Of a DNA stretch of 64,000 nt, positions 15,533 through 48,170 are shown piece by piece. Every line of letters starts with the position of its first letter. The first letter of the stretch is position 1. Below the pieces are notes generated by a model. That model did not search any database, was not told the DNA's origin, and saw nothing but the letters and a program-made list of their open reading frames with translations. The translations under genes were made by a program, and so were the position numbers. This DNA is from a virus, in IMG/VR virus record IMGVR_UViG_3300020446_001892, positions 1 through 64,000 of that record. One strand, written 5' to 3'.

Positions 15533-16204
15533 TTATTCTCTGTTGCCCAAAAGCATCAGTAACATCTGAAATAAGTTAATAAAATTAAGATATAAACTTA
15601 TCGCAAATTGTATACCAAAGCGTGGATCTCCGCCGTGGTTTAAATAAATTTGCTTTGCATTTTGTGTGTCCCATGCTGTCAATCCAGTAAAGATAAAAAC
15701 ACCTAAGACACTAATTGTAAACATTAATGCTGAACTTGCAATAAAAATATTTACAATCATTGCAATAATTATTCCAATCAATCCCATAAAAAGAAATTGT
15801 CCGAATCCTTGTAAGTTCTTTTTAGTTGTATATCCATAAAGACTTGCACTCAAAAAAGTACATGCAGATATAAAAAATACTTGAGCAATACTTCCGCCAG
15901 TATATACAGCAAAAATAGGTGCTAATCCAACTCCCATTACAGTAACAAAACTGTAATAGAAAGTTCTGAGTGTTGAATAACTCCAATTTCTTCCTGCAAA
16001 GCTATACCAAAGGATCATACCCAACGGAGCAAATGCAAAAAGTAACATTGCTCCAGCCATTTGATATAATAATCCACTAGAATATACAAACCATGCAACA
16101 GCACCACTTAGGGCTAATCCAGCCGCAGTATGATTATACATGTTAATCATAAATTGGCGTAAACCTAAATCATATTGTTCACGTGCTTCTGTTAAAGTAC
16201 TCAT
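15533..16204 (-). CDS. Bax inhibitor-1/YccA family membrane protein
   Basis: Seven hydrophobic segments, GLTAWDTQ, ISLYLNFINLF. Confidence 0.9.
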   Translation of the reverse strand: MSTLTEAREQYDLGLRQFMINMYNHTAAGLALSGAVAWFVYSSGLLYQMAGAMLLFAFAPLGMILWYSFAGRNWSYSTLRTFYYSFVTVMGVGLAPIFAVYTGGSIAQVFFISACTFLSASLYGYTTKKNLQGFGQFLFMGLIGIIIAMIVNIFIASSALMFTISVLGVFIFTGLTAWDTQNAKQIYLNHGGDPRFGIQFAISLYLNFINLFQMLLMLLGNRE

Positions 16205-45580: not shown

Positions 45581-45609
45581 ATAATAGCACCAACAAATGC
45601 ATTTGTCAA
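45581..45609 (-). promoter_or_regulatory. Sigma70-type promoter for the ligase
   Basis: TTGACA-17-TATTAT. Confidence 0.7.
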
Positions 45610-45616
45610 CCTAAAT

Positions 45617-45690
45617 TGGACACCTAGGCCGGACTCGAACCGGCATACACGGAGTTGCAGTCCGTTGCATAACCATTCTGCCACTAGGTG
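45617..45690 (-). tRNA. tRNA-Cys(GCA)
   Basis: Acceptor CACCTAG/CTAGGTG, U73, encoded CCA, anticodon arm ACGGA-CT-GCA-AC-TCCGT, GTTCGAGTCC. Confidence 0.95.
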
Positions 45691-45691
45691 T

Positions 45692-45766
45692 TGGCATAGG
45701 TGGAAGGAATCGAACCCTCTCTTTCAGGTTTGGAATCTGACGTGCAACCATTGACACTTCACCTAC
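45692..45766 (-). tRNA. tRNA-Trp(CCA)
   Basis: Acceptor GTAGGTG/CACCTAT, G73, encoded CCA, anticodon loop TT-CCA-AA, GTTCGATTCC. Confidence 0.95.
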
Positions 45767-45802
45767 AAAAAAAGCCCCTAAACAATTTCTTGCTAGGGGC
45801 TT
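45767..45802 (-). terminator. Intrinsic terminator abutting the 5' end of tRNA-Trp (putative attenuator 3:4 hairpin)
   Basis: AAGCCCCTAGCAA-GAAA-TTGTTTAGGGGC followed by T7. Confidence 0.85.
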
Positions 45803-45828
45803 CTAAATAACTTTTTTAAAAAGTCACG

Positions 45829-45888
45829 TCAAGACATACCCCTGGGCGTAGGAGAACACCAAAATTGTAATGTATTAGTCTTGATCAT
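45829..45888 (-). CDS. Putative attenuator leader peptide MIKTNTLQFWCSPTPRGMS
   Basis: AAGGA SD 8 nt upstream; adjacent TGG-TGT codons match the two downstream tRNAs. Confidence 0.75.
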   Translation of the reverse strand: MIKTNTLQFWCSPTPRGMS

Positions 45889-45911
45889 GTATCTATTCCT
45901 TCTTTATTATC

Positions 45912-45945
45912 TATTTATAATAGCACCTTCAATTGACTTTGTCAA
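45912..45945 (-). promoter_or_regulatory. Overlapping sigma70-type and late-type promoter for the leader/tRNA unit
   Basis: TTGACA(45945-45940)-17-TATTAT(45922-45917), overlapping TATAAATA (45919-45912). Confidence 0.75.
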
Positions 45946-46102
45946 CATCTTTTTTATCAATATTTCCTTTATGTCCACAATGTGGACAAAAGAACGTAAA
46001 TCTTTCTATGCATAACTTGTCTTCCATAGTTGCATATGTAAACCAATTATTGCATTTATTGCAGGTCAAATGCCAAATTATTTCTTTGACTGCATTGAAC
46101 AT
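45929..46102 (-). CDS. Zn-ribbon small protein
   Basis: CNKC...CPHC; start revised to 46102 (TATAAATA 4 nt upstream) to avoid tRNA-Gly. Confidence 0.7.
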   Translation of the reverse strand: MFNAVKEIIWHLTCNKCNNWFTYATMEDKLCIERFTFFCPHCGHKGNIDKKDVDKVN

Positions 46103-47425: not shown

Positions 47426-47583
47426 AATTCTTCTAATATTCCTAAGCCTTCTGCGGCAATCAAAAAGAAGCCAGCTAAGACAATGTTACCCATTACAAGC
47501 ATTACGCCTGCAATAATCCTTACAGCACTTTTTACAAGACTTATATAAAAATGCTTTTTTGAAACGTCAACTGGTTCAGCCAT
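47422..47583 (-). CDS. 53-aa membrane protein (missing from ORF track)
   Basis: [53 protein letters not shown]; coupled on both sides. Confidence 0.7.
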   Translation of the reverse strand: MAEPVDVSKKHFYISLVKSAVRIIAGVMLVMGNIVLAGFFLIAAEGLGILEEL

Positions 47584-48170
47584 TATCTTTTCTCCACAAC
47601 TTTATCAGCTAACCCATAATCCACTGCTTCTTGTGCAGACATAAATGTGTCACGATCCATATCTCGTTCAAGCTCTTCATATGTCTTGCCTGCCGTATTG
47701 TGTTTTACATAAAGCTCAGTCAGCATAGTTTTCATTTTTGTTATTTCTTTATATTGAATCTCAATATCGCTTTGTTTACCTCCTGCACCACCACTTGGTT
47801 GGTGAATCATTGTTCTACTGTACGGAAGTACTACACGTTTTCCTTTCGTTCCTGCTTGAGCTAAGAAACTACCCATCGAACATGCCTGTCCAAGCACAAT
47901 CGTTCTTACATCTGGTTTAATATATTGCATAGTATCATATATAGCCATTCCAGCAGTTATAATTCCACCAGGTGAATTAATATACAAATTTATATCCTTT
48001 TCAGGATTTTCGCTTTCAAGGAAAAGCATTTGTGCAACAATTAAGTTTGCAGTAACGTCTTCAACAGGACCGTTCAACATAACAATTCTATCCTTAAGCA
48101 AACGGCTATAGATGTCATAGCTACGTTCTCCTCTAGATTCTTGTTCAACAACCATAGGCACTAAAGGCAT
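47583..48170 (-). CDS. clpP: ATP-dependent Clp protease proteolytic subunit
   Basis: [20 protein letters not shown] (Ser), MIHQP (His), RD (Asp). Confidence 0.96.

Follow-up and report, generated by a model that had tools for sequence, protein, structure and literature searches.

The window analysed here is a stretch of 64,000 nucleotides (nt) of viral DNA, corresponding to positions 1 to 64,000 of the IMG/VR virus record IMGVR_UViG_3300020446_001892. The source record is 83.7 kb long, with 35.7% G+C and an estimated completeness of 23%. It contains a single copy of the element that is the subject of this work, a short leader with a small open reading frame (ORF) and a candidate intrinsic terminator, which directly precedes the genes for tRNA-Trp and tRNA-Cys. 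An earlier reading of the window, hereafter called the original prediction, took this leader for an attenuator and listed a promoter, a Shine-Dalgarno (SD) sequence, a 19-codon ORF with adjacent TGG and TGT codons, a terminator and the two tRNA genes; all of these are present in the window as it stated. The features of the locus, all on the minus strand, are as follows.

45929-46100, minus strand: small ORF of ~57 residues with two CxxC pairs (zinc-ribbon-like), whose 3' end lies within the leader promoter
45945-45917, minus strand: promoter TTGACA-17-TATTAT with a TG extension (11/12 matches)
45901-45897, minus strand: SD sequence AAGGA, 8 nt 5' of the ATG
45888-45829, minus strand: leader ORF of 19 codons plus TGA (MIKTNTLQFWCSPTPRGMS), with the ATG at 45888 and the TGA at 45831-45829
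45878-45889, minus strand: 5' strand of predicted helix P1 (CAUG.AUCAAGAC), start codon included, whose partner is the stop-codon region 45835-45825
45861-45859, minus strand: TGG, the putative Trp control codon
45858-45856, minus strand: TGT, the putative Cys control codon
45854-45850, minus strand: segment 1, CUCCU, partner of the G-run in the predicted terminating fold
45843-45838, minus strand: segment 2, AGGGGU (the G-run), which opens the 5' strand of the predicted antiterminator
45795-45843, minus strand: predicted extended antiterminator hairpin, in which the G-run pairs with the C-run (the 5' arm of the terminator), with a UGACUUUUU/AAAAAGUUA tip hairpin
45803-45767, minus strand: predicted intrinsic terminator with a GC-rich stem and U7, whose last base adjoins tRNA-Trp
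45692-45766, minus strand: tRNA-Trp(CCA), with CCA encoded (Rfam tRNA model, 45.4 bits, E 7.2e-8)
45617-45690, minus strand: tRNA-Cys(GCA), 1 nt 3' of tRNA-Trp (ARAGORN; 61.7 bits with Rfam)
45609-45581, minus strand: near-twin of the leader promoter, 5' of the ligase gene
45552-44209, minus strand: ATP-dependent DNA ligase gene

The tRNA-Trp(CCA) gene was missed by ARAGORN at default settings and recovered with the option -ps90 (45692-45766). Its anticodon stem ends, on the loop side, in an A.C mismatch, which is absent from relatives such as that of locus L047 and probably explains the default miss.

A search with the ligase protein returned 595 related places in viral contigs, the best 80 of which were fetched. 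By blastn, the window leader matched 29 of these 80 ligase-anchored loci with 71-87% identity, and each match ends at or near tRNA-Trp. A scan of viral contigs with a 19-letter motif taken from the most conserved part of the leader yielded 110 stretches. Altogether, the ligase-anchored loci, the motif scan and the window provided 75 distinct elements, from which L097, a chance match with neither ORF nor tRNA, was dropped. Two loci that carry the leader, L028 and L128, were left out by the terminator pattern, which requires five T in a row after the stem. After identical SD-to-terminator sequences were collapsed and L102, which contains an N, was removed, 66 distinct leaders remained and were aligned (alignment A1).

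The relatives of the leader are contigs of uncultured marine phages. Among 50,697 records of cultured phages, blastn searches with the window region and with the leader of a relative matched tRNA genes only, and the window ligase has at most 33.8% identity with proteins of isolates. In bacterial and archaeal genomes the motif scan returned 17 stretches, which is about chance level by a rough estimate, and a full leader was present in one of the 17. This sole genuine leader (L199) lies on contig PBPT01000016.1, of 335,231 bases, from a metagenome-assembled genome (MAG) labelled Candidatus Neomarinimicrobiota. The contig may represent the entire genome of a giant phage that was binned with a SAR406-type MAG, which gives at most a weak hint of the host; the size of the contig agrees with the 23% completeness estimate for the 83.7-kb record. 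Parts of the window stretch were found in 16 DNA runs and 4 RNA runs. The latter are contigs that cover two tRNAs (from relatives, one of which is leaderless) and the promoter-to-ORF part of one relative, and neither ends nor levels are readable from them.

The leader is tightly linked to tRNA-Trp. In all 66 leaders, tRNA-Trp(CCA) is the first gene 3' of the terminator. In all fetched loci, a terminator-like hairpin followed by a T-run was found at most 25 nt upstream of the tRNA in 51 of 77 distinct tRNA-Trp upstream regions, and in none of the 287 regions upstream of 24 other tRNA species. No nucleotide separates the T-run from the tRNA in 36/66 leaders, which leaves no room for a separate promoter. 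The gap is within 11 nt in 49/66, and 14 leaders have a structured insert of 70-131 nt at this place. The ligase-anchored set, which was not selected for the presence of the leader, includes 37 loci with tRNA-Trp and enough upstream sequence. The leader was found in 28 of them, 26 by the motif plus L044 and L063 by blastn. The nine others (L077 and eight more) are leaderless, with a promoter immediately 5' of tRNA-Trp; in L077, the upstream CxxC ORF and the promoter are arranged as in the window, without the leader. The existence of these syntenic leaderless loci indicates that the leader is a module inserted between the promoter of the cluster and its first tRNA. Sequence homologous to the CxxC ORF was found upstream of tRNA-Trp in both L077 and L122.

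The insert between terminator and tRNA-Trp is a separate observation. A conserved, structured element of ~90 nt occupies this place in L035 (2524-2616) and in about 13 other loci, including L044, L098, L102, L105, L122, L126, L149, L160, L164, L185 and L188. The insert of L035 is predicted to form a long closing stem with two inner hairpins (-27.7 kcal/mol, z -3.69). It has no match in Rfam and no obvious promoter; it may serve in RNA processing or represent a small mobile RNA element.

The leader ORF has the hallmarks of a translated sequence whose product is free to vary. An ORF of 15-24 codons that begins with an ATG preceded by an SD sequence is present in 74 of the 75 elements, and an SD-like word was identified in 65/66 leaders (AAGGA in 50, AGGA in 10, AAGGAG in one and weaker words in four). 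The conservation of the ORF and of its Trp codon in homologous loci, which the original prediction had put forward as a check, extends to 66/66 leaders, with the ATG and one in-frame TGG invariant (zero entropy). Between the ATG and the G-run, the frame of the ORF is open in all 66 leaders, against stops in 37/66 and 45/66 leaders in the other two frames, respectively. The TGG follows the ATG at a distance of 10, 11 or 12 codons, and insertions and deletions therefore comprise whole codons. The ATG is invariant in A1 while the bases that pair with it vary. The 66 leaders encode 54 distinct peptides, and codon positions 1 and 2 are as variable as position 3. Because variation is equal at the three positions, we rejected the view that the peptide is selected as a protein. 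Downstream of this part, the segment from the G-run to a TCTTGAC motif is kept as nucleotides whatever the reading frame: where the frame changes the stop moves and the motif stays, as in L008 and L022, with a TAG over the G-run, and in L032-34 and L108, with later stops. Judged from these alignments, the conservation pattern fits a regulatory leader ORF and fits a functional micropeptide poorly. The TTGAC of the conserved motif was also considered as the -35 element of a second promoter and discarded, as by eye the matching -10 element is poor and the transcript would still include the terminator.

The promoter-to-terminator unit of ~145 nt looks like a small RNA (sRNA) gene, and it might be a free-standing sRNA or micropeptide gene with its own promoter and terminator, with the tRNAs expressed constitutively by leaky read-through and the Trp codon mattering only for the peptide or the RNA fold. 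We consider this unlikely. The 54 different peptides without third-position bias give no evident sign of a selected protein, the in-frame relation between ATG and TGG survives whole-codon insertions and deletions, and the start codon remains invariant despite its varying pairing partner. Moreover, the unit occurs solely in front of tRNA-Trp, between the cluster promoter and the tRNA, without a gap in more than half of the leaders, and the G-run able to open the terminator is its most conserved part. Some properties of the predicted folds described next would nevertheless suit an sRNA, namely the compact full-length fold, the compensatory changes in the Cys-Trp hairpin and the pairing with the stop region, which partly accounts for the N-terminal codons.

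The pairing segments named by the original prediction are in place (CTCCT at 45854-45850 and AGGGGT at 45843-45838), and both alternatives, the 1:2 hairpin and the pairing of G-run with C-run, were recovered by folding. The 153-nt leader of the window is predicted to fold at -39.4 kcal/mol (z -2.65), with the 1:2 hairpin (CUCCU:AGGGG) and the terminator. Without the 3' arm of the terminator, it forms the hairpin that pairs G-run and C-run (-18.0 kcal/mol, z -2.8). The minimum free energy (MFE) folds of the 66 full-length leaders have a median energy of -39.9 kcal/mol and a common architecture, which consists of a start:stop helix, a Cys-Trp hairpin, a CCNCC:GGGG helix, a small AU hairpin and the terminator. 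The terminator forms in 65/66 of them, with hairpin energies between -15.3 and -21.8 kcal/mol across the 66 leaders; the G-run is paired upstream in 62/66 and the AUG with the stop region in 49/66. The 3' strand of the Cys-Trp hairpin is made up of the codon before W (the invariant Trp codon) and the UG of UGG. RNAalifold applied to A1 recovered only the CCNCC:GGGG helix, the small hairpin and the terminator, and the helices were thus named from the folds of single sequences and then counted on the alignment.

On A1, 91.1% of the cells of the terminating fold are paired, compared with 40-51% when the partners are slid. Helix 1 (start:stop) and helix 3 (segment 1 with the G-run) are each paired in 91.4% of cells, and helix 5, the terminator, in 93.7%. 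Ten of the 38 pairs of this fold changed on both sides, a number reached by 1 of 500 shuffles. Covariation is strongest in the Cys-Trp hairpin (4/6 pairs) and in the terminator (4/12 pairs), and helix 1 has one two-sided change, from G-C to A-U. The columns of the G-run are invariant or nearly so. The core of the antiterminator, G-run with C-run, can pair in 99.1% of cells; it is silent with respect to covariation because neither strand ever varies. In these models, the anti-antiterminator is a larger 5' domain that includes the start:stop helix, the Cys-Trp hairpin and the CCNCC:GGGG helix. The CUCCU/AGGGG pairing, which the original prediction had proposed for this role, was found and is only part of that domain. 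Similarly, the modelled antiterminator is an extended hairpin of ~50 nt.

Without the terminator 3' arm, the antiterminator is the MFE structure in 59/66 leaders when no ribosome is masked, and in 64/66 when the RNA is masked up to UGG+12. We then scanned the leaders in silico with a ribosome footprint, holding positions -15 to +12 around the A site unpaired. The antiterminator was the predicted MFE structure with the A site at every codon from the second to W-1 and in 64/66 leaders at W itself. Past W, it was favoured in 35/66 leaders at W+1, in 17/66 at W+2, in 2/66 at W+3 and in 3/66 at the stop codon. Folding with and without a footprint, as the original prediction had suggested, therefore marks the invariant Trp codon as the last stall point that would allow read-through in nearly all leaders. 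In the window, a stall is still predicted to permit the antiterminator at W, C and the next codon.

The location of UGG in a conserved hairpin might suggest a switch that works without translation, the leader binding uncharged tRNA-Trp in the manner of a T-box or a protein in the manner of TRAP, with an incidental ORF. Trp genes are known to be regulated in both ways, by the reading of a tRNA or by the binding of a regulator to the RNA. We nevertheless find such a switch very improbable, since UGG lies inside a stem and not in a specifier loop, and since the SD sequence, the ATG, the open frame and the whole-codon character of insertions and deletions are all conserved. Rfam searches at E values up to 1 returned neither a T-box nor any other significant match; the matches other than tRNA are weak, attenuator-like and below the gathering score.

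Taken together, we consider that the element is probably a trp-type, ribosome-mediated (leader-peptide) transcription attenuator, which controls transcription into the tRNA-Trp gene of the phage itself and into the tRNA genes that closely follow it. This supports the attenuator reading of the original prediction, with the ORF, its ATG and its TGG kept in 66/66 leaders across 54 peptides, tRNA-Trp in first position and both folds predicted throughout. We infer the mechanism throughout, from the elements, their conservation, the exclusive link to tRNA-Trp and the predicted folds, which are the computed part. Host RNA polymerase would start at the sigma-70-type promoter, and a ribosome would load at the SD sequence and AUG of the 19-codon ORF before transcription of the leader is complete. 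A fast ribosome that moves past the Trp codon toward the stop would cover the G-run, leaving the C-run to join the terminator, and transcription would end at U7, one base before tRNA-Trp. Slow decoding at UGG or at earlier codons, and in the window also at the next codon, UGU, would leave the G-run free to pair with the C-run in the extended antiterminator, and the polymerase would read into tRNA-Trp and tRNA-Cys. If no ribosome loads, the 5' domain (start:stop helix, Cys-Trp hairpin and CCNCC:GGGG) could sequester both the G-run and the AUG. The net logic would be a negative feedback on the supply of decodable tRNA-Trp.

The tRNA genes behind tRNA-Trp vary among the relatives. Some clusters have no further tRNA gene; in others there are genes for tRNA-Cys, -Pro, -Ile(UAU), -(CAU), -Tyr, -Ser, -Gly, -Gln and others, spaced by 0-7 nt. 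We compared this cargo with the codons of the leader ORFs, with raw counts covering codons 2 to W+1. Cys codons were found in 29/29 leaders with a downstream tRNA-Cys vs 27/37 without (Fisher p 0.0018), Tyr codons in 9/9 with tRNA-Tyr vs 29/57 without (p 0.008), and ATA codons in 8/8 with tRNA-Ile(UAU) vs 14/58 without (p 6e-5). Pro codons showed no such association, with 18/29 in the presence of tRNA-Pro vs 29/37 in its absence (p 0.18), and neither did Ser, Gln, Arg and Met codons with their matching tRNA genes. Exactly three leaders have a Gly codon before W, and these are the three whose cluster includes tRNA-Gly. The close sisters L086 and L179, in a tree built without the ORF columns, have GGT vs TGT before W and tRNA-Gly vs tRNA-Cys in the cluster, respectively. 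Across 52 distinct leader/cargo combinations, 66 of 90 possible matches were observed vs a mean of 53.8 (standard deviation 3.1) after shuffling, a number reached by 1/10,000 shuffles, with relatedness uncorrected. In phylogenetically independent pairs, which are few, the direction was never opposite for Cys, Tyr, Gly and ATA. These comparisons of sequences suggest that the leader codons likely track the tRNA cargo.

The original prediction had designated Trp and Cys as control codons, in the same order as the tRNA genes. The Trp codon is indeed invariant and appears to be the fixed sensor. Cys is common and not universal in the aligned leaders; its codon is lacking in 10/66, none of which has a downstream tRNA-Cys. 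The order of the codons is not conserved, as Cys precedes Trp in 38/66 leaders and follows it in 20, and tRNA-Trp comes first wherever both genes are present. As for the expectation that leader codons would follow downstream anticodons, the raw counts bear it out for Cys, Tyr, Gly and ATA; for these the independent-pair tests are weak, and the other codons show nothing of the kind. CAT-anticodon tRNA genes were seen to accompany ATA-rich leaders in L032-34, L086, L100, L103, L105, L122, L126 and L163. These tRNAs may be tRNA-Ile2 of the lysidine type, which reads AUA, rather than tRNA-Met.

Several points weigh against the attenuator reading and against codon tracking. The sign tests on independent pairs gave a median p of 0.25 each for Cys, Tyr and Gly. 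For ATA, the median p was 0.125 when two or more such codons were set against tRNA-Ile(UAU) by itself, and 0.03 was obtained only when tRNA(CAU) genes were pooled with tRNA-Ile(UAU). In these tests, in which L085 and L093 were scored as unknown for any tRNA that did not appear ahead of the end of the contig, no tracking was seen for Pro, Ser, Gln, Arg, Met or Ala. The underlying tree was built on 217 columns, and 24 of its 61 inner branches are unsupported. Cys codons are still present in 27/37 leaders without downstream tRNA-Cys, and the Gly codon of the leaders, GGT, falls outside what tRNA-Gly(UCC) decodes by standard wobble. The codon before W lies in a hairpin with compensatory changes, and RNA structure therefore constrains that codon too. 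Furthermore, the invariance of the antiterminator core means that covariation neither supports nor tests its pairs. The untranslated leader also thermodynamically favours the antiterminator before the 3' arm is made (the 59/66 leaders mentioned above), so that termination in the absence of translation would depend on an assumed order of folding. Lastly, the proposal presupposes coupling between polymerase and ribosome in the host.

An attenuator might also exist mainly for its terminated product, an RNA or peptide acting in trans, like rnTrpL and peTrpL of Sinorhizobium, with control of the tRNAs being secondary. The terminated RNA would be stable, structured and ~145 nt long, and there are precedents in reports on an attenuator-derived sRNA and a leader peptide that act in trans (PMC6614838, PMC7298713, PMC7968998). 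We regard this as improbable, given that no target is known, that the peptide is poorly conserved apart from W, and that both the strict placement next to tRNA-Trp and the codon tracking speak for an action in cis.

A promoter of the type TTGACn-N16-18-TAnnnT was found upstream of 57/66 leaders. A general sigma-70 scan of the window showed no enrichment (22 found vs 22.4 expected). With a specific (relaxed) promoter motif, we found 13 matches in the window vs 2.1 expected, all of them on the minus strand. The promoters at 45581-45609 and 45917-45945 are near-identical, sharing GTTGACAAA...GGTGCTATTAT. These observations fit a set of early promoters used by the host polymerase. We also observed TAAATA upstream of the leader in 61/66 relatives, where it lies between the promoter hexamers or overlaps them, a count for which no chance expectation was computed; in the window, 45915-45922 reads TATAAATA. 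This word resembles a T4-type late promoter, and by that analogy the leader may also be transcribed late.

Farther upstream of the leader, other genes are found on the same strand.

46658-46583, minus strand: tRNA-Thr
between tRNA-Thr and tRNA-Gly, minus strand: ORF of 123 residues
46191-46118, minus strand: tRNA-Gly

Elsewhere in the window, a 195-residue ORF (47583-48170, minus strand) has a translation that, judged by eye, seems ClpP protease-like. A tRNA-Lys(TTT) of 80 nt (15828-15907, minus strand) was called by ARAGORN at a lowered threshold only and may be a false positive.

Members of the leader-peptide attenuator class include those of trp (trpL of Escherichia coli), his, phe, leu, thr, ilv and pheST. 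To our knowledge, the described members all regulate genes for amino-acid biosynthesis or aminoacyl-tRNA synthetases, unlike the element described here, whose regulated genes would be tRNA genes, so that the tRNA itself would be fed back. In other respects the leader resembles the E. coli trpL class. A short ORF led by an SD sequence lies in the 5' leader (ATG in 66/66, SD-like word in 65/66), its candidate control codon is cognate to the presumed regulated product (TGG and, as the first gene, tRNA-Trp, in 66/66 each), and an intrinsic terminator is predicted between the ORF and the genes. In silico, the antiterminator shares the 5' arm of the terminator, the competing hairpins are of similar energy, stalling at the control codon frees the antiterminator, and a ribosome farther on blocks it, with the stop codon placed so that a terminating ribosome would do so. 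The differences are that a single invariant Trp codon replaces the tandem pair of trpL, that a predicted start:stop helix encloses the ORF, and that the genome is that of a phage. The class as such is described in PMC1183508.

No homology to curated leader families was detected, as Rfam Trp_leader (RF00513) gave no match at E values up to 1. Sub-threshold matches included Phe_leader in the window (23.4 bits vs a gathering score of 55) and His_leader in L035 (25.7 vs 49). These and equally weak matches to the PyrG leader and the trpB motif were taken as generic resemblance and rejected as evidence of family identity. Like the multivalent thr and ilvGMEDA leaders, in which codons for several amino acids are combined, the leaders described here have Cys, Tyr, Gly and ATA-Ile codons before W that accompany matching tRNA genes. 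Unlike in those leaders, the set of codons appears to change along with the tRNA cargo, with modest support once relatedness is considered. T-box riboswitches similarly respond to the state of one particular tRNA by switching between terminator and antiterminator. They read the tRNA directly by a specifier loop without a ribosome, unlike the present leader with its conserved ORF, in which UGG lies in a stem. The Rfam T-box model matched neither the window nor L035.

The nearest published case of tRNA-gene control that we found is the trn operon of Anabaena sp. PCC 7120, a tRNA array induced by stress (PMC8421152, PMC10272220). It is likewise an accessory tRNA set, silent by default and induced when translation is impaired. 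Unlike the phage leader, the trn operon is bacterial, and its regulation takes place at the promoter, by means of direct repeats and the repressor TrcR; the words beginning with attenuat-, as well as leader and terminator, are absent from the main text of PMC8421152. In full-text literature searches, we found no report of leader-peptide control of tRNA genes, in agreement with the original prediction, which knew of none. Attenuation is known for amino-acid operons, and tRNA genes as its target were not found in print.

The tRNA genes of phages are usually viewed as cargo that is expressed constitutively and serves to adjust codon usage or to make up for depleted host tRNAs. If the proposed attenuator operates as outlined, the phage would measure the speed of decoding at specific codons and make tRNAs on demand, in a feedback loop on the tRNA supply itself, and classic attenuation would extend to a new class of regulated genes. 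The leader would also represent a compact natural sensor of tRNA availability, of ~145 nt and with a single control codon, and its natural variants, which differ in codons and tRNA cargo, form a ready-made mutational series. More tentatively, and with somewhat less than even confidence, we propose that the leader acts as a multivalent gauge, able to evolve, of the tRNAs available for decoding in the cell. In each phage, the few codons ahead of the fixed Trp would be adapted to the tRNA genes carried behind the terminator, and the spare tRNAs would be made only upon slow reading of those codons. This could happen, for instance, if host tRNAs run short, are broken down in the course of infection or are cleaved by anticodon nucleases. 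Such a gauge would provide these phages with a self-adjusting tRNA supply and possibly with a counter-defence sensor.

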